Assembly: GCA_000004695.1 (NCBI GenBank)
Contig: CM000150.2
Coordinates: 2,432,001-2,496,000, forward strand
From: Dictyostelium discoideum
Lineage: Eukaryota
DNA length: 64,000 nt
Reading direction: 5' to 3'
Shown here: positions 12,312 to 52,100 of the stretch, piece after piece
Position numbering within the stretch: position 1 is the stretch's first letter
Layout: each line of letters opens with the position of its first letter
The notes under the pieces: model-generated
Told to the model about the DNA's origin: nothing
Database searches by the model: none
The model's input: the letters and a program-made list of their open reading frames with translations, nothing else
Translations under genes and position numbers: made by a program

Positions 12312-13271
12312 TTAAACTCTAATAGCAGAAGATGATTGAACTACATTTGGTTTTGTTGTTTCAATTTCAAAGCTTTCAGAATCATCAATAGATTTATCGT
12401 TTTCATCTTTTTTAGAGATTTGATCATTTGATGATAAGCCTAATAGATTAGAAACGTAAGCTTTTGGTGATTGCCAAAAACTTGTTGATCTATTTAATGA
12501 TTGTTGTTGTTGTTGTTGATTTGCTGAAACTATATTTACAGTTGTAGATGGCTGTGGTGAATTTGAAGATTCAAATAAAGTTGAAGCTTCTCTTGGTAAT
12601 GGATACTTTGAAATTGGAATAAAAGTATTTGGAGCATCGGCAGTTGATAAAATACCAGCATCAACAGTTGAAGAAGATTGTGAAAGTTTATCGACTAAAG
12701 AACCTTTAGCGGTGGGTGTAGTGGTGGTTGAATTTGGTTCACTGGCAGAGGAGTATTGTTGTTGTTGTTGTCTAATTGTATTGAATTGGGGATAGATAAT
12801 TTGTGTGGGTGGTGATAGACCACTATTTATCTGTTGGAGTGTGAAAGTTTCAATCACCTTCTCCATTTGTTTAATCTTTTCATCACGTTCAAAAATACCA
12901 CGTTCCATCACTCTCATTTGGTCCATTAACGCCTTCATTTTCAATTCATTGGTTTGATTACTTTCTGATGTACCCATTTGCTGAAAATAAGTTGTATCTT
13001 GATTTGGGTCCCATTGTAATTGTAATAATAGATCTTCTCTCTCTGTTAATAATTTACGATTAAATTCAATCTCTTTTAATTTATCTTTATAACGTTCTTC
13101 TAATTTATTATGATCCTCTTGTAATTCAAAATATTCTTCTCTTATATCTCTAATAGTATCAATTAATTCTTCTTTACTAAGATGATAAATTCCTAAAAAT
13201 TCATCTTCTTCATCAATAATAATTTCTTCTTCATCTTTTTTATTATTATTATTATTATTATCTTTTGTCAT
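12312..13271 (-). CDS. Hypothetical coiled-coil protein (319 aa), acidic N-terminus, Q/S/T-rich C-terminus
   Basis: ATG at 13271. Heptad-like region: EELIDTIRDIREEYFELQEDHNKLEERYKDKLKEIEFNRKLLTEREDLLLQLQ...MKALMDQMRVMERGIFERDEKIKQMEKVIETF. No family assignable. Confidence 0.5.
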   Translation of the reverse strand: MTKDNNNNNNKKDEEEIIIDEEDEFLGIYHLSKEELIDTIRDIREEYFELQEDHNKLEERYKDKLKEIEFNRKLLTEREDLLLQLQWDPNQDTTYFQQMGTSESNQTNELKMKALMDQMRVMERGIFERDEKIKQMEKVIETFTLQQINSGLSPPTQIIYPQFNTIRQQQQQYSSASEPNSTTTTPTAKGSLVDKLSQSSSTVDAGILSTADAPNTFIPISKYPLPREASTLFESSNSPQPSTTVNIVSANQQQQQQSLNRSTSFWQSPKAYVSNLLGLSSNDQISKKDENDKSIDDSESFEIETTKPNVVQSSSAIRV

Positions 13272-13650: not shown

Positions 13651-13770
13651 TGAAATTATTATTCTAATTATTGCTACCGATGTGAGCGAAAAAAATTTTA
13701 AAACACAACTATGTGTGTCATAAAAAAAATAATAAAATAAAATAAAAAAAAAAATAAAAAAAAATAAAAT

Positions 13771-13850
13771 TAAAAATAACCCTTTTTTGGATATTAAAAA
13801 AATAAAAAATAAAAATACCCCTTTTTTTTGGATATTAAAAAAATAAAACA
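13771..13850. repeat. Imperfect ~38 bp tandem direct repeat (AAAAATAMCCC(T)nGGATATTAAAAAAATAAAA x2)
   Basis: Two adjacent copies are visible between the HslV stop (13906) and the coiled-coil gene ATG (13271). They lie in the putative promoter of the latter and 3' of the former. Confidence 0.6.
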
Positions 13851-13905
13851 AAAATAATAAAATTTTTTTGAAAAATAACTATATATATATCAAAAATAAT
13901 TGATT

Positions 13906-14880
13906 TTATTGATTAGGATTTGAAGGTTCAGTTTCATTTGTAATTGGATTAGTTGTAGTAGGATTTTGTTGATTTGATTGATCAGGGAAAGAAGTTGTTG
14001 ATAAAGTTGATGAGGTTATTGAATCAGTGATTGAATTTGTATTATTTGTATTATTTGAATCGGTGGTTGTTGTTGTTTCACCAGAACCATCAATAATTGG
14101 ATTTAAATTATCTTTATTTTCATTGTTACTATCAATTACTTCCAAGATGAAATTATGATTTGTATAGATACAGATATCAGCTGCAATTTTCATTGATCTT
14201 CTTGCGATTTCTTCAGGATCTAAATCTGGTACGGTTAGGAGGGCACGAGCAGCAGATAATGCAAAATCACCACCACTACCAATTGCGAGGATACCATCGT
14301 TTGGTTCTAAAACGTCACCATTACCATCGATATTTAATGTGATATCTTTATCGGCTACGATTAATGATGCTTCCAATCTTCTATAGTATTTATCAGTTCT
14401 CCATTGTTGTGCTAATTCAACACAACTCTTTAAGAGTAAACCACGATGTTCTGTTAATTTTCTTTCTAATAATTCAAAGAGTGTAAATGCATCTGCAACT
14501 GATCCTGCAAAACCTGCAATGATTTTACCATCTGATAACTTTCTAATCTTTTTTGCATTTGGTTTGACAATCGAGTGACCAAGTGTAACTTGACCATCAC
14601 CAATAATAACAACTTTACCATTTCTTCTAACTGATAAAATTGTAGTTGCTTTCATTCTATATGGATCAGAATGCATTGATCCTGCACCTGCACCAAGACC
14701 CCAATATTGTGGTGGTGGAAGTGGTGCTCCACCTGTATAATATCCACTTGTACCCGAACTTAATTTACTACTTTCAACTACAACATTACTTATATTACTA
14801 TTTCCTAAATTACCAATTATTGGACTTTTTTGTAATGATGGTATTAAATATTTACTTGATAATTTTGAAAAATTAAACAT
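13906..14880 (-). CDS. hslV: HslV (ClpQ) threonine-protease subunit homolog, with an N-terminal extension that looks like a mitochondrial presequence and a low-complexity C-terminal tail
   Basis: The core aligns nearly end-to-end with bacterial HslV: [101 protein letters not shown]...[30 protein letters not shown]...[13 protein letters not shown]. The catalytic Thr would be exposed if the ~75 aa N-terminal extension ([19 protein letters not shown]...MKA) were cleaved. The T/N-rich tail follows. Confidence 0.85.
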
Positions 14881-15180
14881 TTTTAAAATATGTTTATATT
14901 TGTAAAAAAAAAAATAAAAGAAAATGAAAATGAAAAAAAAAAAAAAAAAAAAAAAAAAATAAAATTTTCAAAAAAGTTTTTTTTTTAATTTAATTTATTT
15001 TATTTTGTTGCAGATTTCAATTATTTAAACAGTCCAAAATGTATATAAACTTTATTTTTTACCCAAAATGGTCAGATATATATTTTCAAGAAAATAGTAA
15101 ATTATCAATTTTTAAACTTTTAATTTTTGACTAATATTATTATTTATTTGATTTTTTTAAATTATTTTCAATTTCTTTAA

Positions 15181-16351
15181 TTAATTTTGTATCTTTGAAA
15201 AATCAATAACAATGCCACTTAGATGGTCAACTAAATTAATTTTAAAATTTGGACACATATTTGGTTGAATATTATAATTATTCCAATCAAAATATAAGAC
15301 ATTTAATCCAGTTGGTTCATTATTTGAATCTAATTCAATTGTTGAGTTTGGAATTAATGGTAATTGATTATCTGATTTAGGTGATAAACAATAATAATAA
15401 CAACCACCACGAGATGAATTTGAACCAATTCCATCAACTAATAAAGCAGTTTTAACACCAAAATTTATCCAATCAAATACTTTTCTTTTACAATAATTTA
15501 ATGAATCACCTTTTGATCTACATTCTAAAATAAAATGATTTGGTATTAACTTTTTAAATTTGATTTTATCATTATCATTTTCATTATAATTATCAGTATC
15601 ATTTTCATTTTCATTATCAGTTTCATAAAAAACTATATCTGGTTTCCTAAAATTTTTATTTTTTTTAGTTTTTAATTTTTATAATAATTAATTATTATTT
15701 TAATTTTTATATTATTTATAAATATAATAAATACCTAATACCAGAAGGAAGTAAATAAAATAAATTTGAATTTAAAATGAATTTACCTTTTAAATTATCT
15801 ATTGAAATTAATGAATTATTTAATTGATTATATAAATCAGAAATTTGAATATTAATATTAAATGAAATTAATCTAATATAAAGAATTGTTTTATTTAATG
15901 TTGTAATATGAAGATCTTTATTATTTGAGATTATTTTTTTAATTGATATTTGATTTGAACTAAAAAATGGTAACAAATTTGAGAAATATATAAAAGTTGA
16001 TGATGGTACTCCAATTAATGTATCATTAACAAATGAATTTCTATTTTCATTGGTTTCATTAAATTTTTTAAATTGTTTATTTGTTATTTTAAATGGTAAA
16101 TTAATTGAATATAAAAGTTTATTAAATTCATCTTCTTTTTCATTTTGTAAAATAATTTTATCATAATCAAAATCATTACTATTATTAATTATTTCATATC
16201 CTTTACTATATTGATTTGAAAAAACTAAAATTAAATTAATTAATAATAATTTTTTTTTTTTTTCATACAAAACAAATAACAAAAGAAATACTTTACAAAA
16301 TTTAATTTTTTTAATTATTCTTTTAAATTTAAATATTATCTTTTTACACAT
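15181..16351 (-). CDS. Hypothetical protein with a Uma2/DUF820-like PD-(D/E)XK nuclease-fold motif. Two exons, about 15736..16351 and 15181..15646.
   Basis: Exon 1 (ORF 15716..16351) ends ...LLPSGIR at a GTATTT donor. A TTTTAG acceptor leads to KPDIVFYETDNEN...LIPNHFILECRSKGDSLNYCKRKVFDWINFGVKTALLVDGIGSNS... This matches the Uma2 pattern P-[DN]-x-x-[IV]-E-[IV]-x-S-x-x-D...K...Y/F...GV.E/A.W/L.VD. The N-terminus looks like a signal/TM segment. Confidence 0.45.
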
Positions 16352-24627: not shown

Positions 24628-25286
24628 TTAAATTGGAGTTGGATTATTTATATTGGAATTATTTGAAACATTAGAATTATTATTATTATTATTTAGATTA
24701 TTATTATTATTATTGTTTGGATTAGAAGTATTTCCAGTATTATTAGAATTATTTGAAGGTGAAACTGAAGATTGTTGAACAGCTTTAATAATTTCGGATT
24801 GCAAATTACGTAAAGATTGTAAATCATCTCTTTTTTCTGGAAAATAAGATAAAAATTCATTTAAACTTTCAACTGAAGCACTTAGAATATGAAGATGTGG
24901 AGCCAAAGCGGCCGATGAAGATTTACTTAATTGTCTCTTCATTTTAAGTATTACTTTGAAAACACCATGTTTGAAGAGATTGAAATAGAATAATGTTGCC
25001 AATTGTGATGGTAATTGACCAACTTGTTTCTTTAAACCATATAATACCAATTCATTTGTTATATGATGAAGATCAAATAAAAGTTTTTGGTAAGATTCAT
25101 GGAATATTGATTGTTGATGATGTTGATCATTTGATGGTGATGGCGATTCATTATCGTTATCATTCTCTAAAATATCAAATATATTTTCCAATTCTTTTAA
25201 TTCCTCATTTGTAAGTTTAGTTGATCCAAATATTCCACTTGTAGTTGAAATATTTGTATTTATTATTGAACTATTTCCACTACTAC

Positions 25287-25329
<43 letters not shown>

Positions 25330-28300
25330 GTTGTTATTATTGTTATTGCTATTACTAATTACAGAACTATTTGAAATTATATTACCACTTGCAACTGTAG
25401 AATTATTTCCACCAATATTAGATGACACTGATGAAGATGATGATGATGAAGAAGATGATGATGATGATATAGTATTTTGAATTGGTGCATTCCAATTTGA
25501 ATCAGAATTTGTAATTAAAGATAATAAAGAAGAAGATTTCATTAATAAAGAATTTTGTGAACTATTTAAACCACCTGAACTATTTAATTGTTGTTGTTGT
25601 TGTTGTAATTGATGTTGAAGTTGTTGTTGCTGTTGTTGTTGTTGTTGTTGTTGTAATTGTTGTTGTAATTGTTGTTGTAATTGTTGTTGTTGTTGTTGTA
25701 ATTGTTGTTGTTGATTATTAGTTTGAATACAATAGAGATAAAGACTATACCAAAACTTTTTAAATTTACGAATGAATTTAGTGATCAATTGCTCCAATGA
25801 TCTATAATGATAACCACCTTTCAAACCTGAACTTGCAGAGAATGAAGTCAATTGACCAGTGGTAATACGTAATGAGATTACATATTTCTCAGTTAAACTA
25901 TGTTTATTATAAACGATGATATGCTCTTCCAAGTATTTCTCTTTCAACAATAGATTAGTATGTTCTAGGATCGCTGGAATATTTGGACGAACTGTAATAC
26001 AACTAGATGTCATTGGATCAATTGAAATTACACCATTACTTGGTGGATCAATAATAAAGAAGATTGTATTTGCTTTAACAACAATTGATAATGGGTCACT
26101 AAAACTATTATAAATTGAAATCTCTCTAATAATTTGTGAACTACCACTTGAATCATCAAATTCAAAATCAACTTTTTTACTACCACTAGTACCTGTACTC
26201 ATTGATGATTTACTAGATGTTGTTGTCATTGTTGTATTTGTTGATGTTGTTGTTGTTGTTGTTGTGGTTGCTGCTATATTTGGTTCATTTGATTTTCTAA
26301 TCTCATCTTTATTTAAAATAAAATTACTATCATTTAGTTGTTGTTGTTGTTGTTTTTCTTTTTCTTTTTCTTTTTCTTTATCTTTTTCTTTTTCTTTATC
26401 TTTTTCATCTTTCATAATGATTTTACCTTTAAAAACTATATTTTGATCAGATAATTTCATTTGTGGATATCTACAAGTTGCTGATAGTGTAATGATTTGT
26501 TGATAATCACGAATTAATCTACAATTTAAAAAGATTTTAATATCTTTTTGAGTGAAAGATGTATTGTTTGTAGGATTTGATGAAGATGGAACATGGAAAT
26601 AAACGAAAACTTTAACTTGACTATTTGGTTCTACATAGAGTGTATTGAATTGACGTAAATAGGAACGAGATAATGAGAAACAAACTTCGGTTGGATCATT
26701 TGGTGATAAAGAAGTACTTAGCATGAAATCCAATGGCATTGAAGAAGAATTTGAAACAATGAATGATCTATCGGTATAGGTGATATTATAGAAAACGTCA
26801 CCCAAATTGATTATTGGTGCCGAGTTTTGTTTACCTTCAACCAAAACACTGAAATGTGAATTTTGTTTAACAACGACATCAAATGTGATTTGAATGGTTT
26901 TGATATCAGCTGGATTATTACGATTTTCAATGATTAGATAAGTGGAATACATATCGATACGTTTTGTTGAAAAGTTCACTGTGATAATATGACGACCATG
27001 TGGTTCGATTTTACCAGAGTTTCTACTTAAATTTAACCAAGTATCATCATTATCTTTCATAGAGTAAATTGAATATTCAACTGGTTTAACTGATAAATTC
27101 TCTAATGTTAATTCCCATGGTATTGATCCAGATGAAAACTCTTGTTGACTTAGATGAATTTCATAACAATTCTTTAATCTTTGAATTGGTGTACAACCCC
27201 TTAATGATAATTTTGGTAATTTATTTAAATTTATAATTGATCCTGTTGAAATTGGATCATTAACTATAATTGGTGTAATAATTTGATTATTAATATTATT
27301 ATTATTTGATGTTGTAGTTATTGTTGATGATGATGATGTTGAAGTAGTTGCAATTGGTTGAGTGTTATTTATAATTGAACCATCTTTATTATTAGATAAT
27401 AATGAAATATCATTAATATTTGAACTATTTGGAATTGATTGTGAACTAATTGTAATTGGTGTTGATACTGATGATGTTGATGGTGTATTATTATTTGATA
27501 ATAATTGTTGTTGTTGTTGTTGTTGTTGTAATTGTTGTTGTTGTTGTTGTTGTTTTAATTCACTTAAATTTGAAGATGGTGAGGTTGGATTTGGAATTGG
27601 TTTATAATTACCAACTAAATTAATATTAACTTTTTGAGTTTCATTATTTAAAGTATCTAAAGCAGTTACAATTACAACAAAAGATGAAGAAGGTGGTATA
27701 TCATCAATACCATTTAAATCGATAACAACATTAACATTCATTAGTTCATTTGGTGGTATTTCACCCTCTTCTGGGGATAATTTTACACAACTTGTTGGTA
27801 ATAACCATTGATTTTGATTGAAAACCGATTCAACTTTAAATGTTAATGAATAATGACTACTGGTATTCTTAATTTTGAAATAATCATCCAATGTTGTCAA
27901 GAGAGATTGTTCTTCACCCTCTTTATTTGTGATACGAGAGATAACATTGAAATTCAAACGATTAATTGATAGAGAGAAATAATGGCCAGGTAAGATTGTA
28001 CCTTTCAATGGAATCACCTCGATTGGATAAATTGAAGTATTCAAAATGATCTTACCAAATGTTGTTAATTCTTCAAATGATCTTTCACGTAGTTTTGAAT
28101 CTGGACGTGGTCTAGCACGAATTCTAACTTCAATCACTTCTTGTGGACGTAATGAAAATGATGGTATTGGTGTATTTGATGTTTTGTGAACTAATTCCAC
28201 CATAATTAACTCTGAAAATTGTGGTAATAAATCAACTTCAGTTTGAATTTTCAATGATTTATTAGATGTATTTTCAATTGTAAACCATTCATCAGATTGA

Positions 28301-31300
28301 GATGATGCACCAACTAATGGAGGATGATAAATACATGGTAATATAATATCACCATTATTAGTTGAATTATTATTATTATTATTATTATTACTATTATTAA
28401 TGCTACCACTAACAATAATACTACTACTATTTCCACTATCACCACTACCACTACCAACAATATTATTAGCTAATGTTGGTGAAGCTGTTAATGATGGTGT
28501 ATTTACAGTAGAGGTTGCTGTTGTTGTTGTTGTTGTTGTTGTTGTTGCTGGAGTACTTGTTAAACGACCAAAATTTAAAACTCTAAAAGTATGATATAAT
28601 TGGAAATTAACAGACATTGTATTAAATTCATTCATAACATTTTCAAATTGAATTGGATAAGTTATTGGGCCAGGTTGAGTTTGTTCAATCTTTGTTGGAT
28701 CAATACCAATAATAATTTGTTTTGATTCTGATGATGGAATTTCAAATTCAATAACAATTGATTCTTCTTCTTCCTCTTCTTTTTCTTTTTGTTGTTGTTG
28801 TTGTTGTGGTTCTTTTCTATCATTTAAAATTTCATTAACACCATCATCTTTTTCTTTAATTAATTTATTACTACTATTATTATTAATTGATTTTTTAATT
28901 CTTGGTAAAATTATTTTATTTGAAGATGAAGATGGTGAAGTTAAATTTGAATGATTTGGATGATTTAATAAAACTCTAATTGATTTTGAAGGAAGTGATC
29001 TAACACGAATGACTAATGGAATCTCTGAAAGATTTCTAATTTCAATAGTAGTGAAAATTTCTTTCCAAGAATTTTCATAACCAACTCTACCAATATCAAT
29101 TGTATTATTATTAATAATAACACTATTTTGATGAGTATTATTATTTTGATCATTTACAAATAAAATTTCACCCATCATTGACATACAATAACTACCAGTA
29201 ATTGAAACTAATTTTGAAATATGAGTTTTACCTTCACCAGGTGCAATTGGATAATGAGTTGAATCTGATCTTTCGAAAACAAGTGTACCTTGAAATTTGA
29301 CTTTACGACCTTTACATAACATTAACTTTTGTTTTGGTGTTATGATTGTATCAGGTTGTGGTGGTTGTGGATAAGCTATGACTTTTTGTTCACTTGAAAG
29401 TACGAATGGTTTTGCACATAATCTCATTGACTTTCTACGATCACCCATTGATTGAGATTTAATCATTTGTAACTCTTCAATTGTTGGTTCATGAAGGAAG
29501 AGATAAATGTTTATATTTGATTTTGGATAGATACGAATATCATACTTGAGATAATTTCTCATTGTGAATTGTTTTTGTTGATATAATTGATCCGATGCAC
29601 TTAATGAACCTTGATCGATCAAGTATTGTTGTGGTGTTATAACGAATGATAATAACTTTCTATCACCGGCAGCAATCTTTTCATTCCAAGATATTGGACT
29701 AACATAGATATCGTCGAATCTTAACATATCACCGCCACCATTCATATTGATTGGTAAATTTGTAGTTAATGAAGAATCGTCAACCAATAAACGTATATTG
29801 ATTTCAAGTTTTTGACCTGAACAACTTAGATTGGTAATGATAATTCTCTCTTCATATAAACCATAAATTGAAGCTACCAAAGAGAAATGAATCTTTTCCT
29901 TTGAGAGTGGATGACTAACTTCACTACCCTCCAATGAACCTTCCAATTTCGAAGATAATTTCAAATTCTTACTATGAGTGATTTGATAATTCAATGGTAA
30001 CAAAGTTGAAACATTTGAGATTGTAAATGATGATGAAATGGTTTCACCCAATTGTCTAGTTGATCCTAAATCAATCATATTCTTTGCAACTCTTAAAATA
30101 CTCTTACCAACAATCGATGTGAATTTTATAGTATTCTCATAGAGTAAATTATGATCTTGATCATGTACTTTGATTCTAATACCACCAATTAATTCTCTAC
30201 AATGACCATCTACATAATTTTCACTGGTCATACTTGGTCTTAAACAAATTTGAACCACTGATTTTTCATAACCACTCAAGAATAAATTATCGGCTGGCTT
30301 TGATAATCTATCATCAACAAATACAAATACCTGTTGAGTTAAATTTGATTTCATAGAGATATACAATGATTTACCCGATAAATTATCCAATCTAAATGGT
30401 AACACCTTTGAGAATTTCTGTGATTTATCATAATAACAATTTCCAAAATCTAAAATTTGTGTTGATGGTAAATCTGGGAATACTAAATATTGTGGTGGTC
30501 TTGGACTTAATGCAACCAATAATAAACTTTCAAAATGATATTGTGTTGATGTAACTACAATCGTATGAGTTTGTTTACCTGGTATTTGTGGTTGACAAAT
30601 TACTTCAATTAATCTTTTACCATATGGTTCAATTATACCTGATTTCTCTTTTAATATTAAAACATTTTTACTTGAATTATTATTTGAATTTGTTGTTGTT
30701 GTTGATGTTGATGATGTTGTTGTTGATGTTGTTGATGTTGATGATGATGTTGATGATGGTTTTGGTGGTTGTTTTACATTAATATCAAATGGAACTTTAT
30801 GACCAGTATGGTTTGTAATTGTAAATCTAAATGTAATATCTTCATAAATTCTAACTTCACCTAAATCAATTTTACCTGGTGAAATTGTAAGAGCTGTTGA
30901 ATTTGTAGTTGTTGAGGAAGATGAAGAAGAAGAAGTTGCTTTTGAAGCTGTTGGTTTAAAAATTGAAGTTGTACTTGATAAAATATTATTTGAGAAACTT
31001 GGTGAAGATGGTGGAGGTGGTGATGAAGGTATAACTCTTGAACTACCACTACCAAATGGAATTGGTGATGATGATGTAAAATGTTGTGGTTTAAATGGTG
31101 AGAATGAAGGTAATTGATTATCAGGTACAGTATTTGCACTATTGATTGCATTTGATGAAAGATAATTTTGACGATAAGTTTCTTCATCGAAACAAACTGT
31201 TGAAATATAATTAATCTTTTTAGTGACATCAATATTCTTTGATTCATAAATTAATATTGAACCATTACCATCCTCTTTACCATACCATTGTTTTTTAGTA

Positions 31301-34300
31301 CCTGGTTTTGGTACTGGTGAGAAATAAACCAAAACATTTTGAATACCACCACCTTCAACTTCAAATGTAATTGAATTATCACCAATTTTACAAAATTGTT
31401 TCTTTTCTAATTGTTGTTGAACTGGTGGCGTTGTTGTTGCTGTTGTTGTTGTTGTTATAGCTTGTTGTTGTTGTTGCTGTTGTTGTTGTTGTTGTTGTTG
31501 TTGCTCAACAATTAAAGCTTTTTCAATATTTGATTCATTATTTTCATTATCATCAATTGGTGTTGGTGAAGTTGCTCTAGAGATTGGGTTTGGTGTGATT
31601 GAACCTGAATTTCTTAATTTTTCGATTTGCATATTAATTTTTAAAGCTTTTTCATGTTGACCTTTTCTACGACAAATTTTTAATTTTCTTTCTAAAAGAT
31701 CAATTTCCATTTCAGTTTCTTTAGAGATACTAAAAGCAGATTTCTCTTCAAGTTTAAAGTATAATTTGTTTAAACAAGATTCAAAAGAGGAAGGATTATC
31801 ATCAATGATTTTAAAGATACGACGTTGATTACTAGTGTTTGTGAGTGTGATACGTTTTGTGATTGATTTACCTTTGATCATGACTACACCGAAATCTATA
31901 TCCAAAGTATTGAGAAAGAAATGTCTTGGTTTCTTTACGTTTGCTTTAATATGAACTATTTGATTATTACATTGATCATAAACATTCTCAATGATTAATT
32001 TCTCATCAAATATACCAGAAAAGGTTGGTTTGAATACGAATTGAACCTCTCTCTTTCTGTAGGGTCTAACGATACCCATACGATCTGCATTTTCAATATT
32101 TAAATTACCACTAGTGATTGAACCGGATTTCTTAATTCTATAGATCAATGGTACTTGTGAAAGATTATTGATAACCAATGATTTCGTACGATAATCATAT
32201 TGAATGATATTACCGAAATTGATATATCTTTGAGCTAAATCCATAATGGATCCACAAACTTTAGTTGATACCATCAATTCTCTAATTGGTGAATCATTGA
32301 TCTTTATACCATTCAATGACTCTAATGAAATGAATAATTTAGCTTCCATATTCTTTAGTTTACCACCTAACCAAGGTCTTTTCGTTCCACTAACCTTTGA
32401 TACAATAAATATTGTTACCTCTGATTGTTGTTCAATCTCTAATCTATCCAATTTCTTTAATTGACCAGATTGAATAATAGTTTCCAATTTCTTTAATCTA
32501 TTAATTTGTGATGTAATATATGAATTTTCACTCTCTAAATCTGTAAATAATGGTGGATTATTATCATATTCAAATGTTTGGATAAATTGAATTAATCCTG
32601 ATGATGTTAAAAGATTTGATAAATCAACTTGTTGTTGTTGTTGTTGAATTTGTTGAGATTGTTGTAATTGTGATGATTGTTGTAATTGTAATGATTGTTG
32701 TTGTTGTTGTTGCTGTTTGTCATCTTGTAAATTTGAATCATCATCTTTATTTGTTAAAACATTATTTGAAGTATTTATAAATGGTATATTAGTTGCACTA
32801 TGACTTGATAAAGAACCTGGTCCAAAACTACCAATATTATTATTACTATTATTTAAAATAATATTATTATTATTATTATTATCTTTACTATCTTTACTAT
32901 CTTTACTATTTGAAGAATCAAATGAAGGTGAAGAAGCTCTTGAATTAGTTCTTGAATTTGGATTACTTTGGTCATGACTTGATTGTAATTTTTTCTTTCT
33001 TTCTTGTGCTTGTTGTTGTAATTGTTGTTTATCTTTTGAATCTTGTGATTGTTGTTGTGGTGATTGTTGTTGTGGTGATTGTTGCTTTGGTACTTGTGAC
33101 GATGATGATGATTGTTGTTGTTGTTGTTGTTGCTCTTTATTATCTTTATCTTTTTCTTTTTCTTTTGAAGATTTTGGATTTAATGCTAAATCTAAATATT
33201 GACTATTACCAACTTTATTTGAACCACCAACTACATTTGAATTATCTTTATTTTCATCAAAGAATTTTGAGAGATATTCTTGAAGATTTTGTTTTGTAGT
33301 TGAATTTGCTAATGATTGATTTTGTGATACCAATAATGAGAGTTCTCTCTCCTCTGTATATAATTTAATTTCATCTGGTAAAGAGGTAGAAAGATTTAGA
33401 ACCAATGTACCTTTACTAACATTTTTTATACTAAACGTACGAACGGATGGACAATTTACAATGGTTTCATCGAAATCGATATAACTCTTATTGTATGAAG
33501 TTTCTAGATGATAAAATTTAGAATGAACAGAAACTGAATGTTCATCGATATTATTTGCACGTACCTCTAGGAACTGTTGTTGATCATCCATTATTGGATT
33601 CTTTAAATTGATAAAAGTGATTTGTTTACGATAGTCTGGATTATTTTTACGTGGTAAAAACTCCATTTGTAAATCGTAGGTTTGTTTAGGTGCAATTGAG
33701 AATGTTTGATTCTTGAATGATACAACCTTTGATTGATATCTCAATTGAAGATGAGCTGTTAAATCTGAAAGATTAACCAATTGTATAGTGTATCCTTTGA
33801 TGCTACCGACTGTGCAATCACCCAAATTAATCTCTGATGGTATCTTTACAACCGATGTACAAACTCTACTCGATACACGTATGGTTTTATTCTTTTGTTG
33901 TTGTGTCGATAGCTTACCTCCCAATAATGATTTACCATACTTTAAAAGGATTCTAAAGTTTTTATCATTCAATCTTTGTGATCTTGGATCACTAATTGGG
34001 AATAATGATTTCGGACAATATCTAACACTAATCACTCTTTCTGAACCTGGATTAAGTGTTAACTCTTCAATTCTTTCTTTACCATTTTTAACACCATGAT
34101 TTTGATTTCCTCCGCCTCCCTTTTGATTTGTATTACGTTGGTGATGGTGGTGGTGGTGACCACTACCATGACTTCCAATTGATAATTGACCATTATTAAT
34201 TTTAATTAAATCATCATGACTATCAGATGATCTATGTTCACCAATGGATAACTTTGATTGATTTCCATCTAAATCCTTTTCAGTATCCTCTTCATGAAAA

Positions 34301-35773
34301 TGAAAAGTTACTTCATCATCATCATTATTATTATTATTATTACCACCTCTACTACCACTACTAATTGATAAATCACTACTAAAATTAATATCAATTGATT
34401 CTTCTGATATATTCTTTATTGTAAATGTTTGAAAAGTTGCAACATCTGTATAACAATCTCCTAAATCTAAATTATTAGTTGAAACTTGTAATAATTCCTA
34501 TAAAAATAAAATAAAATAAAAAAAATTATTAATAATAAAATTAAGAATTAAATATGTATATATATATATATATATTAAAAGTATTATTTACAATTTGTTG
34601 TTCAGCAGAAACAAAAGAATGAATCATAACAATTTCATAACTATTTGAATCATTCTTATTCTCCAATTTAAATTTATAAGTGAATTGACCAATATTTGTT
34701 GGTTGATAAGTAACTCTAATTGTCATTGATGAATAACTTTGAACAATACTATTATCTCTTGATAATGGTAAACCAGTTGCATAATCTGTGAATTGAAAAT
34801 AGTTTCCAAATTTCTCTTTATAATAAGTTGAGAATCTTAATGGCATTTCACATTTATTCCAAAGTGTTATATCTTTAACATAGGTTTGACCAACTATACA
34901 ATCATCAAAAATTAATTCATTAACATCTAACTTTAATAATGATTTACAAATTCTAATTTGTAAATCAACAATTAATTCCTTTTGTTGTGGTAATATAATC
35001 AATTCATTATTATCACTAGATTGTTGTGATGATGATGATGATGGTAATAATGGCTCAGCATTAAAATAAATTTTACCTTTAACTTCAAAATAATTATATC
35101 TATCATTCTTTTTATCACCATCTTTTTTTATAATTTCATCTTTATCATTTAATTCTTTATTCTCGTCATTACTTTCTTTTGTTGTATCATTATTATTACT
35201 ATTATTATTATTATTATTATTATCTGTATTACTTTCATTATTTATATTTTCAATTAAATCTATATTTGGTGTTGAACTATCTGTATTATTACCATTATTA
35301 TCTATATTTGATTGGTCATCTTGTATTAATTGTTGTTGTTGTTTTGGTGGTTGTGATAATTGTTGATCAAATGGACGATATGAAATAACTATATTTTTAA
35401 TTTCTTTTGGTGCCAAATTGACTTGATCAATTAAATTCACTTCATTGAATAATTGATTGAAATCATCATCTTGTATTGGTGTTTCATCTGAATCATCTTG
35501 CATATTCTCATTGTTTAATTGGAATGCAACTTGTGGTAAATCTGATTTCAATTTGACTTGTACTGGATAATCAACTGTATTTATTAATTTGAAATTACGA
35601 AGTACATATGTCTCTTTAAGTACAACTTCATTCAATTCTAACTTCGATCCATTTAAACTTGTCTTTATAATTGGTAATATAATATTGTTACTAGTAGCGG
35701 TAGTAGTTGTTGTATTATTGTTGTTGTTTGTAGTAATATTACCACCACTAGTAATATTATTATTATTATCCAT
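24628..35773 (-). CDS. Giant (~3,680 aa) protein built from many ASH/MSP-like (PapD-like, Ig-fold) beta-sandwich domains separated by Q/N/S/T low-complexity linkers. Two exons, about 34592..35773 and 24628..34497.
   Basis: ATG at 35773. The exon 1 ORF (34541..35773) ends ...VSAEQQI at a GTAAAT donor. A TTTTATAG acceptor at about 34498 joins in phase to ELLQVSTNNLDLGDCYTDVATFQTFTIKNISEESIDINF..., which continues into the 3,135 aa track ORF. Repeated segments follow the pattern [LI]xFGxVxVGxxxxxxxx[LI]xNxSxxP/LxF/L (for example LIFDDCIVGQTYVKDITLWNKCEMPLRF, LDFGNCYYDKSQKFSKVLPFRLDNLSGKSLYI, IDLGEVRIYEDITFRFTITNHTGHKVPFDI, IDFGVVMIKGKSITKRITLTNTSNQRRIFKI), as in ASH domains. Confidence 0.7.
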
Positions 35774-39480: not shown

Positions 39481-42033
<2,553 letters not shown>

Positions 42034-44606: not shown

Positions 44607-45532
44607 TTATAAAGATACAGGTGGTTCACATTTTAATGAATTATTTTTAATTAATTCATCATCGAATAATTCAGAAGGTGGTTTAGTTAAAACCTTTTGA
44701 ATTGAAGGAATTGGTCTGAAACAATGAGATTGAAGTTGTTGAGATTGTAAAATCTTTCTTGATAATTGACGATAATGGAAAAAGTTAACGATACCACCTG
44801 GTAAAAGACGTGGTGAACTTGTTTCAATAAAAGATAATTCGTCCAATAATAAATGAATATTTGGAATGCAAGGTGGTTTAGCATCTGGTAATAACTCTCT
44901 ATACTTTTTATGATCATTCTCTTTGGAAACGATTGATTTCAAATGTTCAAAAGTGGCAAGATTTCTTTGGGAAACGTTTCTCCAAGTGTCTGACAAACGT
45001 TCGATAGATTGGTCTACCAAAGGCTCGACAATGGAGAAAACCGCAGCATAATCGTTATTGGCCAAACATTTCTCTGCGGCCTCAATGAAACGTTCGATTG
45101 TAGCAACTCTTTTTTGAAGTTTAGTTTGTTTTAAAATCTCTGTTGAAACGAAACGAGCGAGATTATTACATTTTCTAACGAATTTATGAATGTTTTCAGC
45201 TGGTACAACCTCGACGAATGAAGTACCAACATATGGTGTAGTTGTTGATTCTTCGCCACATTTCTCCCAAATATATTCAATAAATTCTCTAGCTTTAATA
45301 CGATTAAAGTAAAAACTATTAATAATTGTAATTTGACGTGCCAACTCTGTACTATGAATATCTTTTACATCCAAATATTCACTAGTAGTTGGTGGTGGTA
45401 TAATACTAACTGGATATGGTTCCTCACCATTACCAATACCATTTGATGTTACCAATACACTATATCTATTATTACCATTTTGAAGCATCATTTTTGATTG
45501 ATTTGCTGCCGCAATATTTATTATATTTAATC

Positions 45533-45622
<90 letters not shown>

Positions 45623-48100
45623 TACTACTACTATTTACACTATTATTATTATTTATATTATTTATATTATTTACAGGGTTATTATTATTATTATTATTAT
45701 TATTTATAAAATCGGAAGGACTATTAATTTGAATTAATAATTCTAATTCTGAACGTTTTTTTTGTAATTCAGTCATTAGCTTTGGATCGATTAATAATTC
45801 ATTATTACTTATTGTTGTACCTAAAAGTAAAGCTGTACTTGAGTTTTGTTGAGCAGAGATTTTATCAAATTCATTTAAATTATCTTCCATTGCTTCCTCG
45901 AGGAAATCTTGTGGATAATAGTCGATCCAACGTTTAAAGAAAATGATAACACGTAATTGAATCACTCTTTGTACCTTTTTCCAACCATTGATATCATTGG
46001 TAAAGTTATCGGGTGAATTGGCGATATAACGTGATAATAAGAGTTCAAAGATTTGTTGTGGTGGTGCAAAACAACGATATGCCAATAGGAAATCTTGAAT
46101 GTATGATGTATCATAGTAGTAATCAGAGGTTGCACGTTCAATCATCTTTGTGATATGACTTGTCAATGCTGCATAGCATGGTCCTTGTTTTCTCTTTAAT
46201 GTTTGGTATCCAACATGTTTTGGTTTTGCTGCAATCTTCCAAATTGAATCACTTGGTTTATGTGGTCTAGATTGAATTGGTGAGGTTGGTGGTGGTGTTG
46301 TTGATAATTGACCATCAACCAAATTCAATTCCATAGATTTCCTATGAAGTGACATTGTATTTCTTCTAGATTGTGCTAATGATACTAATTGCGATCCTTG
46401 TGGTGGTGTTGATGGTGATGAATTATTACTTCCACCTGATGATGATAAATTAATTTGTTGAATACCTGTTGTAATATCTGGTGAGATATTACTAATATTA
46501 TTATTATTATTGTTATTGTTATTGCTATTATTTGGCGAGAATGAAATATTTGGAGTTTGAATAATTGGTGTTTGAATAGTTGGTGTTGAAACTACTGCTG
46601 CTGCAGCTGCGGCGGCGGCGGCGGCTGCGGCTGCAGCTGCAGTTGCTACCTTTAAGTTATTTTGACAAACTTTTAATTGAGATAAAATTTCATCAAACTT
46701 TGGTCTAGTTAATGGTTCATAAAGACAACATTCAACGCATACTGAAATTAATTCAGATGGACATCCTGGTATTGATTTTTGTTTTAATTCTTCTGGATTA
46801 ATATCAAAACATGTCTCTGGTGATCTAACCCATAAATCTACACCTGGTTTTCTTCCAGTAATTAATTCTGCTAAAACGACACCATATGAAAATACATCAC
46901 ATGATGTGTCATAACTCATACCCAATAAAATTTCCTAATTTCAAAAAAAAAAAATAAATATTAAAAAAAAAAAAAAAATAATAATAAAAAAAAATAAAAG
47001 AAGAAAGTTAATAATTATAATAATAATAATAATAATAATAAAAATAATAATAAATAAAAAAAAAAAAATAAAAACAATCTCGATTAAATTCGATTCGATT
47101 TTCGATTGGATTTTTTTTTAAAAAAAAAAATAAAAATATGGCTTATACTAAAATATCTTTCGAGCCATTTAAAAAAAAAATCTGTCCAAAAAAAAAAAAA
47201 AAAAAAATGAAAATTTTGGAATACTCACTGGTGCAACCCAACCTTCAGTACCGCACATAGTCATATGTCTTGATTTTTTTGTTTGTTCGCTCATTCTAGC
47301 AAAACCGACTATAGTTTTGTGGGAAAAGAAAAAAAAAAAAAAAAAAAAAAGTTAGAAATGAAATAAAAAAAAAAAAAAAAAAAAAAAACAATCTAAAAAT
47401 ATACTTACAATCACATAAACGGATTCTTTGAAATTCATCCAACTATTGAATAAAATAAAAAAAATAAGAATGTTAGATAATTTTATTATTATTATATATT
47501 TTTTTTTTTTCTTTACATACCAAAATATTTTTTGATTTTAAATCTCTATGAATAATTTTCTTGGCATGTAAAAATACCATTGCCTTTGCTAAATCTACTG
47601 CAATTGATACACGTTTATCCCAACCAATTGGTGGTGTTTTCTTTAAAAGTTGTCTTACATCACCACCTGATACAAATTCTGTTACAATATATAATCCACT
47701 TGAGTGAACACAAATACCTGAGAAATTAACAATGAATGGATGTCTTAATGATCTATTTATTATTGTGAAAAATCAAAATCAAAATCAAAATCAAAATCAA
47801 AATCAAAAAAATAAAAAGAAAAAAAAGGGTGTCAGAAAAGCAAATAAATTTTTTTTTTTTATACTGAAAAAAAAAAAAAAAAAATACTTACTGAAGCATC
47901 GAAACTTCTCTATCAATATATTTGAGATATTCAGGGTCGTCAGCTTTTTCAATTTTTTTAATTGCAACATCTAAACCTAAATAACATCCTCTAAATACTG
48001 AACCAAAACTTCCTTTGCCAATTTTTTCATTGAATTCTAAACTCTCAAATGGTATATCCCAAATTGCCTGTGTTGGTAAGCCTGGATCTGCTTCTGCCAT
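44607..48100 (-). CDS. Protein kinase (TKL-like) fused to RasGEF-N and RasGEF (Cdc25-homology) domains. Five exons, about 47892..48100, 47521..47752, 47409..47442, 47229..47308 and 44607..46934.
   Basis: Exon 1: MAEADPGLPTQAIWDIPFESLEFNEKIGKGSFGSVFRGCYLGLDVAIKKIEKADDPEYLKYIDREVSMLQ (Gly-loop, VAIK), donor CA|GTAAGT. Exon 2: SLRHPFIVNFSGICVHSSGLYIVTEFVSGGDVRQLL...IIHRDLKSKNILL (HRDLKSKN). Exon 3: LDEFQRIRLCD. Exon 4: FGFARMSEQTKKSRHMTMCGTEGWVAPE (DFG...APE). Exon 5: EILLGMSYDTSCDVFSYGVVLAELITGRKP... There is a poly-Ala run (GCN)n at about 46590-46640. RasGEF region: ...FLLAYRCFAPPQQIFELL...ITIINSFYFNRIKAREFI...NNLARFVSTEILKQTKLQKRVATIERFIEAAEKCLANNDYAAVFSIVEPL...NIHLLLDELSFIE. All splice phases join. 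Confidence 0.75.
47768..47817. repeat. (AAAATC)n hexanucleotide microsatellite in intron 1 of the kinase-RasGEF gene
   Basis: About 7 perfect units are visible (aaaatcaaaatcaaaatc...). Confidence 0.8.
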
Positions 48101-50896: not shown

Positions 50897-51850
50897 TTAT
50901 TTTAATTTCTTTACATCATTAATTGAATGAAATGAAATTTCACCACGTTCAATTACATCTGGTAAATTATCAATATGATTTAATTGAACACGAATGAATT
51001 TAACCATATCCAAAAGTTGTTGTGGTGTAACATCTGGACTCATTGCATAAAAGTTTCTCCATAATGCATTACATAATACTGTATCATCAAATAAACCTTC
51101 ATCATATGAAATTAATGTTCCTAAATAAGTTGTATAAAAATCTTTTAAATATTTTGGAATAAATCTTTTTTTAATCTAAAAATAAAAAAAGGTATTAATA
51201 AATAAATTTTATTTTATTTTATTTAATTTTTTTTTTTTTTTTAAAAAAAAAAGATTACATACACCAGCAATTGCTATTTTTTTTTCTAAATCTTCCCAAA
51301 AACGATCATATAAATCAATTTGTAATTGTTTTGAAAGTTTTAAATCTTTTCTTAAACGTACAAATACAATCCAAATATGAAGTACAGATATGGTAAACCA
51401 ACTTCTAACATTAACTGGTAAATTTGATTGTTTATAAAATTCAATATCAGATGATTGTTTTGCAATTTCTTCATAAATACGATATGAATTATGTAATGAA
51501 ATTGTATCCTTTGAATAGAATCCTAATAAAGCAAGATACCAACTCTTTTCTTTTCTCATTTGTTCCTTTGCTAAATATTTTGGATTTGGAATATATTTTA
51601 AAATTTCTTTATCATAATCACTATTAATTATTTCATCTTTATTAATATTTATATCTTCTGTTGTTGTTGCAGCATTTGTTTCATTTTCTGGTTTAATAGT
51701 CGAGAATGATTTAATTAAACAATTATTGAAATTATTTGTTTTAAATAAATTTGAATTTGAATTCAAATTTCTAATAGTTGAAATATTAAATTTATTTGAA
51801 TATTGTAATAACCCCCTTTTTAATAAATTTCTAGATATATTATTAATCAT
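50897..51850 (-). CDS. Ubiquinol-cytochrome c reductase complex assembly factor UQCC1/CBP3 homolog. Two exons, about 51263..51850 and 50897..51175.
   Basis: ATG at 51850 (the track's 51859 start is a GTG). The N-terminus is presequence-like (MINNISRNLLKRGLLQYSNKFNISTIRNL...). The Cbp3 domain spans the intron: ...SWFTISVLHIWIVFVRLRKDLKLSKQLQIDLYDRFWEDLEKKIAIAG|GTATGT...TTTTAG|IKKRFIPKYLKDFYTTYLGTLISYDEGLFDDTVLCNALWRNFYAMSPDVTPQQLLDMVKFIRVQLNHIDNLPDVIERGEISF. Confidence 0.75.
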
Positions 51851-52100
51851 TTTTTTCACTTTTTACCACAAACCACCCAACTGAATTAAATAAACGACAA
51901 AAAAAAAAAAAAAAAAAATTAAAAAATTAAAAATTAAAAAAAAAATTAAAATAAAAAAAAAAAAAAAAAAATTAAAAAACGAGTAATTTCGTGTCCATTA
52001 GTTTTTTTTTTTTTTTTTCATTTTTTTATTTTTTAGATATAATATTTAATTATAAAAATAGAAATATATATATATATATTTATATTTATAAATAATTAAT

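Follow-up and report, generated by a model that had tools for sequence, protein, structure and literature searches.

A nuclear gene for a bacterial-type HslV protease subunit in Dictyostelium discoideum and the anatomy of its N-terminal extension

Our analysis of a window of 64,000 nucleotides (64 kb) of Dictyostelium discoideum DNA centred on an intact nuclear gene which, with a probability of roughly 0.85, encodes HslV (ClpQ), the proteolytic subunit of a bacterial-type HslVU protease of the Dictyostelium mitochondrion. This reading includes import of the protein into the organelle, its cleavage and its activation by HslU. The precursor would be made in the cytosol and would enter the mitochondrial matrix by means of the basic, hydroxylated and acid-free distal part of a 78-residue N-terminal extension. 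Removal of the extension would then leave Thr79 as the free N-terminal nucleophile, and the mature protein would build a double hexameric ring. HslU, an AAA+ unfoldase encoded by a gene of its own, would activate this ring and supply it with substrates, its C-terminal tails inserting between the HslV subunits. The extension itself appears to be made of two parts, a fast-evolving targeting peptide and, behind it, a more conserved pro-region, which ends in seven residues that probably derive from the short leader found in the closest bacterial HslV proteins, most of them alphaproteobacterial.

The open reading frame comprises 324 codons and a TAA stop and is intronless and uninterrupted (Table 1). 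The plus-strand reading of the same interval is filled with stops, so the protein is the product of the reverse strand. Its translation is identical to DDB_G0269282 of D. discoideum AX4 (XP_645845.1, EAL71991.1, UniProt Q55ED6), an entry that UniProt already labels ‘ATP-dependent protease subunit HslV’, and a first-pass annotation of this DNA was right to take the family assignment as established. The gene is intact and genuine and, since it has already been annotated, it is not new. The same annotation had described it as a bacterial-type gene in a eukaryotic nuclear genome, and the locus agrees with this description: the exact AX4 protein match sits on a contig of 4,923,596 bp, and the neighbouring open reading frames are ordinary eukaryotic nuclear genes, encoding a myotubularin-like phosphatase, Dak1, a RAI1/Dxo-type nuclease, NKAP, NAP, a RasGEF, SHQ1 and a DEAH helicase. 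No tRNA genes were found in the 64-kb window. The GC content of the window ranges from 13 to 29%, and hslV lies in sequence of about 22% GC with AT-rich flanks; the oligo(T)-rich tract upstream of its start codon is likely the promoter or 5′ region of the gene.

Table 1. Features of the hslV locus in coordinates of the 64-kb window.
Feature	Position	Strand	Basis
Complete single-exon CDS, D. discoideum HslV/ClpQ (DDB_G0269282)	13906..14880	-	ORF list, exact protein match, HslV HMM
Oligo(T)-rich tract upstream, then ‘aaaaATG’	14901..14960	-	Direct reading of the sequence
Distal N-terminal extension, residues 1-40, Ser-rich, putative mitochondrial targeting peptide	14761..14880	-	Composition, dictyostelid comparison
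Proximal N-terminal extension (pro-region), residues 41-78, motifs GYYTGG, PPQYWG and DPYRMKA	14647..14760	-	Dictyostelid alignment
DPYRMKA, residues 72-78, gap-free alignment to the leader of the closest bacterial HslV proteins	14647..14667	-	Junction survey
Thr79-Thr80 codons, equivalent to Thr1-Thr2 of mature HslV, catalytic N-terminal nucleophile	14641..14646	-	PDB alignments, invariant in alignment
HslV catalytic core, residues 79-250, predicted Ntn-hydrolase fold	14131..14646	-	HMM, PDB, AF2 pLDDT, conservation
Acidic T/N/S-rich disordered tail, residues 251-324	13909..14130	-	Composition, pLDDT, alignments
Poly-Thr run, residues 269-273	14062..14076	-	Alignment of four D. discoideum strain sequences
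18-residue segment with SSTLST core, residues 284-301	13978..14031	-	Alignment columns about 370-390

A recent horizontal transfer from bacteria or a contamination of the assembly, in place of mitochondrial inheritance, would be in keeping with a core that is 63–69% identical to bacterial HslV. We consider such an origin highly improbable and reject it on genomic context and orthologue distribution. The gene is part of a chromosome-size contig of 4.92 Mb on which it is flanked by myotubularin, Dak1, RAI1, NKAP and NAP genes, its surroundings have the low GC content given above, and the protein bears low-complexity tails in the style of Dictyostelium. Moreover, four D. discoideum strains carry the gene, the same protein having been found in three further isolates of this species, every dictyostelid genus of our set has an orthologue (Dictyostelium, Polysphondylium, Heterostelium, Acytostelium, Tieghemostelium and Cavenderia), and there are oomycete, kinetoplastid, apicomplexan, jakobid and Acanthamoeba homologues. 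As for the mitochondrial inheritance that we favour, hslV serves as a nuclear marker gene of mitochondrial derivation (PMC4198247), and the nearest named bacterial proteins among the matches listed come from alphaproteobacteria, namely Sphingomonas, Rickettsiales and Acidocella.

The first-pass annotation had placed the protein in the HslV family and had proposed a profile-HMM search, which returned a significant match (E=1.5e-79) to the NCBIfam HslV equivalog NF003964; the match scores 265.9 bits, where the cutoff is 137, and spans profile positions 4-178 of 179. The model TIGR03692 gave 255.7 bits (cutoff 157.75; profile positions 1-170 of 171) and the Pfam Proteasome model 88 bits, whereas archaeal and bacterial proteasome beta models reached just 22–37 bits, far under their cutoffs. 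The best PDB matches were HslV chains with E values from 2.8e-62 to 1.9e-49, including the mitochondrial HslV of Trypanosoma brucei (4hnz). In the matches to the HslV proteins of Haemophilus influenzae, E. coli, Thermotoga maritima and T. brucei, query residue 79 is aligned with the first residue of the mature chain, so the Thr that had been expected to be exposed by cleavage does occupy the position of the nucleophile. The protein shares 59.8% of 169 aligned columns with E. coli HslV, within the 50–60% identity estimated earlier by eye, and is 61.8% identical to H. influenzae HslV.

The residues kept, numbered as in mature E. coli HslV, include Thr1, Thr2, Asp17, Lys28, Lys33, Gly45, Ser124 and Gly125, which correspond to Thr79, Thr80, Asp95, Lys106, Lys111, Gly123, Ser202 and Gly203 of the D. 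discoideum protein. Asp95, Lys106, Lys111, Gly123 and Ser202 are landmarks of its core, and all eight residues are invariant in an alignment of 17 dictyostelid, oomycete and alphaproteobacterial HslV proteins. All motifs quoted in the first-pass annotation were recovered: TTILS at residues 79-83, GDGQVTLG at 94-101, AIGSGG at 199-204, RMKA at 75-78 just before Thr79, a 15-residue stretch at 122-136 and a 10-residue stretch at 235-244. In all sequence-level features that were checked, the predicted protein has the character of an HslV. Its core is also predicted to adopt the Ntn-hydrolase fold, as indicated by the identity of about 60% to solved HslV structures and by an AF2 model with pLDDT values of 75–90 over most of the core (approximately residues 79-250), in which strands and helices follow one another as expected.

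The HslV proteins of E. coli and H. influenzae (MEROPS T1B; PDB 1g3i, 1e94, 5ji2) thus resemble the Dictyostelium protein over the whole 170-residue core and have the same Thr1/Thr2, Asp17, Lys28, Lys33, Gly45 and Ser124 and the same pocket with Phe54 and Phe57. However, they begin with Met-Thr-Thr and stop at the end of the core, whereas D. discoideum HslV has 78 additional residues before it and 74 after it. The D. discoideum protein further differs in that it is encoded in the nucleus by a gene unlinked to hslU and carries Glu in place of Gln114 and Gln in place of Lys80. The beta subunits of the 20S proteasome have the same Ntn-hydrolase fold, the same Thr1/Asp17/Lys33 chemistry and an N-terminal propeptide that needs to be removed, but they match D. 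discoideum HslV weakly (23–37 bits) and their Gly(-1) is absent from it. HslV is built of six-fold rings and works with HslU as its partner rather than with an ATPase of the 19S type as the 20S proteasome does.

No HslU was found in the 64-kb window, as had been noted before: tblastn with E. coli HslU yielded only a 14-residue match (E=1.8). As a positive control, HslV gave 659 bits in the window, and the E. coli HslU query, checked against PDB, matched 1g4a_E over its full length with 956 bits. One AAA+ open reading frame in the window (39481-42033) was considered as a candidate HslU and rejected, as it carries the Pfam domains AAA_3 and AAA_lid_2 and no HslU tblastn match falls there. The HslV protein itself has the pocket that would receive the HslU tail. 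Among the pocket residues listed in PMC6429459, Phe132, Phe135 and Ala157 are identical to E. coli Phe54, Phe57 and Ala79, and Gln114 is replaced by Glu192, as in the three aligned alphaproteobacterial proteins. Lys28, which reportedly also has a role in this pocket, is kept as Lys106. The HslU pocket of T. brucei HslV is enlarged (Ile54, Met57, Thr114), whereas Dictyostelium keeps the bacterial Phe54 and Phe57; judged by these residues, the docking pocket of D. discoideum HslV is of the bacterial and not of the enlarged trypanosome type. Together with the reports of HslVU in amoebozoa (Ruiz-Gonzalez and Marin 2006, as cited in PMC2277460), such a pocket provides indirect evidence for an HslU partner in Dictyostelium. 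Acanthamoeba has both HslU and HslV (PMC7050145).

Other eukaryotic HslV proteins provide the main guide to the location of the D. discoideum protein. The HslV proteins of T. brucei (TbHslV, 4hnz) and Leishmania (LmHslV) and the ClpQ proteins of Plasmodium falciparum (PfClpQ) and Acanthamoeba are also nuclear-encoded and of bacterial type, and they carry a removable extension directly before Thr-Thr, which in TbHslV amounts to 19 residues preceding Thr20/Thr21. A mitochondrial location has been demonstrated for the kinetoplastid, Plasmodium and Acanthamoeba proteins in those organisms. HslVU of T. brucei is mitochondrial (PMC2277460), Leishmania HslV has a mitochondrial signal which is removed and directly precedes the ‘TTI’ motif (PMC6429459), P. 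falciparum ClpQ occurs in two forms, a pro-form of 22 kDa and a mature one of 18 kDa (PMC3223699), and Acanthamoeba ClpQ was seen in mitochondria by microscopy (PMC13632651). By inference, D. discoideum HslV would work like these kinetoplastid, apicomplexan and Acanthamoeba mitochondrial proteins, and its probable assignment to the mitochondrion is drawn mainly from this homology. What sets it apart from them is a longer pro-region that is partly conserved, an HslU pocket of bacterial type and the low-complexity tail.

The first-pass annotation had proposed an N-terminal extension of about 75 residues and a C-terminal tail; both are present, but the former is 78 residues long. The N-terminal extension contains six Lys/Arg, two Asp/Glu and 16 Ser/Thr residues and has a net charge of +4 and a pI of 9.6. 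Basic residues are sparse, with four Lys in residues 1-40, and the first acidic residue is at position 36, residues 1-35 being free of Asp and Glu. Ten of the 13 dictyostelid proteins have a similar start, with 2–4 basic, no acidic and 5–12 Ser/Thr residues among their first 30, although the sequence itself is unconserved; the three exceptions (P0012, P0014 and P0017) include gene models with suspect starts. Such a composition, basic, acid-free, rich in Ser and Thr and variable in sequence, is typical of targeting peptides and would fit this role here. In the AF2 model, residues 1-76 have pLDDT values below 50 and are predicted to be disordered.

The description of the N-terminus as presequence-like therefore stands for composition but not for helical amphipathicity. 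The maximum hydrophobic moment of 18-residue windows was 0.22–0.27, and that of residues 2-40 lay below the shuffle mean of 0.36 +/- 0.09, with 94% of shuffles reaching or exceeding the observed 18-residue value. This was a simple test (Eisenberg and Fauchere-Pliska scales, windows of 11, 14 and 18 residues, 2000 shuffles) rather than a trained predictor. The N-terminus of D. discoideum HslV is not a textbook amphipathic presequence, and, as no amphipathic signal rises above the shuffles, the argument for a presequence comes from composition and homology only.

The outcome of the amphipathicity test is one of the points which would agree with an HslV that is not mitochondrial at all, the extension being no targeting signal and the protease working, perhaps in the absence of HslU, in the cytosol or some other compartment. 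Furthermore, no HslU lies within the 64-kb window, and the lysate that yielded the protein had been called cytoplasmic; however, the same lysate held the mitochondrial proteins AIF, Odo2 and ATP synthase beta and is therefore non-discriminating (PMC12828403). We consider a non-mitochondrial HslV improbable. The eukaryotic HslV proteins localised so far are all mitochondrial, including that of the amoebozoan Acanthamoeba (PMC2277460, PMC6429459, PMC13632651), the basic acid-free N-terminus is kept across dictyostelids, and the HslU docking pocket is conserved.

The study of this lysate also provides evidence for expression of the gene. Q55ED6 was seen in it by mass spectrometry with two unique peptides, including a 10-residue peptide from the core, and an AlphaFold 3 12-mer of Q55ED6 was fitted to an unassigned star-shaped cryo-EM class, an assignment that was left unconfirmed (PMC12828403). 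The accessible part of the mass-spectrometry supplement of that study lists neither peptides from the N-terminal extension (e.g. LSSGTSGYY...) nor the mature N-terminus (A)TTILSVR, and non-tryptic N-termini were outside its search. D. discoideum HslV is intact, expressed and strongly conserved and has kept all catalytic residues. Its conservation is uneven: the core (residues 79-250) is 88–99% identical to that of D. discoideum in all dictyostelid genera of the set, as compared with 11–54% for the extensions outside the closest species. In other dictyostelid genera, identity to D. discoideum is 11–50% for residues 1-40, 30–54% and thus a bit higher for residues 41-78, and 16–44% for the tail (residues 251-324). 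The motifs GYYxGG and PxY(W/F), which lie upstream of the cleavage junction, are common to dictyostelid HslV proteins, and within the set examined a long conserved pro-region and a T/N-rich tail were found in dictyostelid proteins only.

The proximal end of the pro-region can be compared directly with bacterial leaders. For this junction survey we used the 106 closest non-dictyostelid relatives among the matches listed, of which the named ones are mostly alphaproteobacteria, plus an oomycete. The mature part begins with Thr-Thr in all 106. Gly stands at -1 in 91 of them and Ala in the remaining 15, residue -2 is Y or H, residue -3 is W, L, M, I or F, and the commonest leader length is 12 residues; D/N-P occupies -7/-6 in the 22 leaders that were inspected at these positions. 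Among the matches listed, the closest named bacterial proteins are the alphaproteobacterial-type HslVs (Sphingomonas, Acidocella and Rickettsiales; P0049, P0093 and P0051), with a core identity of 63–69%. They share with Dictyostelium the Asp/Asn-Pro at -7/-6 before Thr-Thr as well as the Glu at 114. However, their leader is mostly 12 residues long and ends in W/L-(Y/H)-G, and they are without a C-terminal tail, whereas the dictyostelid leader measures 36–148 residues in database models and ends in (M/K)-K-(A/S).

The dictyostelid junction reads D-P-(Y/M/F)-(R/K/Q)-(M/K)-K-(A/S), in which Asp(-7) and Pro(-6) line up with their counterparts in the bacterial leader. Residue -1 is Ala or Ser in 17 of 17 dictyostelid sequences (Ala78 in D. 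discoideum) and Gly(-1) is absent, and basic residues at -2 and -4 are kept in nearly all dictyostelids. In D. discoideum, DPYRMKA keeps Asp(-7) and Pro(-6) and has M-K-A instead of W-(H/Y)-G. To judge from this alignment, the extension seems to end in a pro-piece of some seven residues which was kept from the ancestor and whose cut site has been remodelled, and this junction anatomy is the one point which may go slightly beyond the existing annotation.

The canonical motif of the mitochondrial processing peptidase has Arg at -2 or -3, or at -10. The D. discoideum junction, R(-4)-M-K(-2)-A before T-T, carries Lys at -2 where the motif would have Arg, and position -10 is not Arg either. Our preference, the least certain part of the interpretation, is that the final cut may be made or assisted by this peptidase and not by pure autolysis between Gly(-1) and Thr1, because of the Ala at -1, the Lys at -2 and the Arg/Lys at -4. 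A fuller version of the same idea, which we put forward tentatively and consider rather unlikely as a whole, is that maturation has been rewired: a fast-evolving targeting peptide would be followed by a conserved pro-region of about 35 residues in which the ancestral leader of bacterial type persists, W-(H/Y)-G before the Thr would have become (M/K)-K-(A/S), and the Thr would be exposed by the processing peptidase instead of by autolysis at Gly(-1). If true, such rewiring would couple the activation of an Ntn protease to its import into the organelle.

A different route to the mature enzyme is suggested by the fact that propeptides are common among HslV and proteasome beta subunits (PMC8665760). 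The extension could be removed by pure autolysis, like that of proteasome beta subunits and presumably also the leaders of bacterial HslV proteins, with the processing peptidase at most trimming its distal part, and the pro-region from GYYTGG to DPYRMKA would then be an assembly-linked propeptide which blocks Thr79 until the ring has formed. Proteasome autolysis targets the Gly(-1)-Thr1 bond and calls for nothing beyond the correct residue at -1, Thr1 and an active site that is intact (PMC4792962), and D. discoideum HslV lacks none of the active-site residues. Moreover, the pro-region is more conserved than would be expected of a pure targeting peptide, and the Ala(-1) found in 15 of the 106 non-dictyostelid relatives may suit whatever removes their leaders. 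Nevertheless, we regard autolysis as possible rather than probable: Gly(-1) has given way to Ala or Ser in every dictyostelid sequence, the aromatic or hydrophobic residues of bacteria at -2 and -3 have been replaced by basic ones, as one would expect of a change towards a processing-peptidase site, and the AF2 model, with pLDDT below 50 in this region, contains no folded contact between pro-region and core.

The tail had been described as T/N-rich, which its composition bears out: residues 251-324 consist of 24% Thr, 19% Asn and 14% Ser and carry a net charge of -8. Residues 253-324 have pLDDT values below 50 in the AF2 model, and the tail is missing from the aligned bacterial and oomycete HslV proteins. 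It contains a poly-Thr run of 5, 6 or 11 Thr depending on the D. discoideum strain, which is the main source of the differences in protein length. The only tail segment recognisably common to several dictyostelid genera is that of residues 284-301. Leishmania LmHslV is active with a C-terminal 6xHis tag, and additions therefore appear to be tolerated at the C-terminus of HslV (PMC6429459). Most likely, the tail is low-complexity sequence in the style of Dictyostelium which the enzyme tolerates and which has at most a minor role. If maturation has indeed been rewired as outlined above, the GYYxGG and PxY(W/F) motifs and the SSTLST motif of the tail could have roles in assembly or regulation.

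HslVU is a proteasome-like machine which has been retained in the mitochondria of many protists. In trypanosomes it controls the replication of mitochondrial DNA, and in Plasmodium and Leishmania its use as a drug target is under discussion. HslVU is absent from animals, fungi and plants (PMC7050145). As a genome finding, the D. discoideum gene holds nothing new, since it is annotated, reports of HslVU in amoebozoa go back to 2006 and mass spectrometry has already recorded the protein. The sole and modest addition of our analysis is the anatomy of the extension, with what looks like a retained bacterial-type leader and a remodelled cleavage junction. Dictyostelium is a tractable and non-pathogenic model which carries HslV, and it could help to study the role of this protease in an ordinary aerobic mitochondrion.

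Within the HslV tail, a poly-Thr run varies among D. discoideum isolates: in alignment A2, which comprises the HslV proteins of four cluster members of this species, it consists of 5, 6 or 11 Thr depending on the isolate. These length differences are microsatellite-like variation within coding sequence. Two dictyostelid orthologues have odd N-termini. The 400-aa protein of Tieghemostelium lacteum (P0014) carries an acid-rich N-terminus of 148 residues, unlike that of every other HslV orthologue, and just 36 residues precede the Thr-Thr pair in P0017 (250 aa). The start or exon calls of both gene models are probably wrong. Outside the dictyostelids, one of the closest HslV relatives among the matches listed is a 200-aa protein with 68% identity (P0020; sources JGI, Logan and ENA), which is encoded on a 317-kb contig and whose 28-residue, Asn/Ile-rich leader (MYSLTNFIILNNPYEEILINHDKDKMYA) ends with Ala at position -1, directly before the first Thr of the pair. 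Both an AT-rich endosymbiont and a protist are candidate sources of this protein.

Intergenic DNA 3′ of the HslV stop contains, as judged by eye, two near-identical copies of a ~25-base motif that reads 'tttttaatatccaaaaaa(a)gggt(t)attttta'. A Pfam search of both ORFs flanking HslV gave no match (see table). The sole AAA+ ATPase noticed within the window was rejected as HslU, the unfoldase partner of HslV: its Pfam matches are to AAA_3 and AAA_lid_2, and a tblastn search of the window with HslU had no match at this ORF.

Features in and around the HslV gene and other ORFs of the window
Feature	Position	Strand	Length	Remarks
HslV-flanking ORF	12312-13271	-	319 aa	poly-Asn/poly-Gln runs
Intergenic repeat	~13770-13880			
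HslV-tail poly-Thr	14062-14076	-		
HslV-flanking ORF	15716-16351	-	211 aa	
Giant ORF	24628-34035	-	3135 aa	weak Ig-like matches: CFAP65, CFAP74, Cep192 domain 1
410-aa ORF	34541-35773	-	410 aa	Ig matches: Cep192 domain 4, HYDIN-like
AAA+ ORF	39481-42033	-	850 aa	AAA_3 and AAA_lid_2 matches
RasGEF ORF	44607-46925	-		first 84 residues match protein kinase domain, C-terminal end only
Chaperone ORF	51209-51859	-		ubiquinol-cytochrome c chaperone domain (Cbp3/UQCC1-type)

The 410-aa ORF lies directly upstream of the giant ORF on the same strand, and the two may be exons of a single very large gene. Their cilium-associated domain families are curious because D. discoideum is not known to have cilia, although Cep192 is centrosomal. 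Since the kinase match of the RasGEF ORF is limited to the C-terminal end of the domain, it suggests an upstream exon encoding the remainder of a kinase-RasGEF fusion. The N-terminus of the chaperone-domain protein is probably encoded in another exon; judged by its family, this product would, like HslV, be a mitochondrial protein encoded in the nucleus, the second such case in the window.
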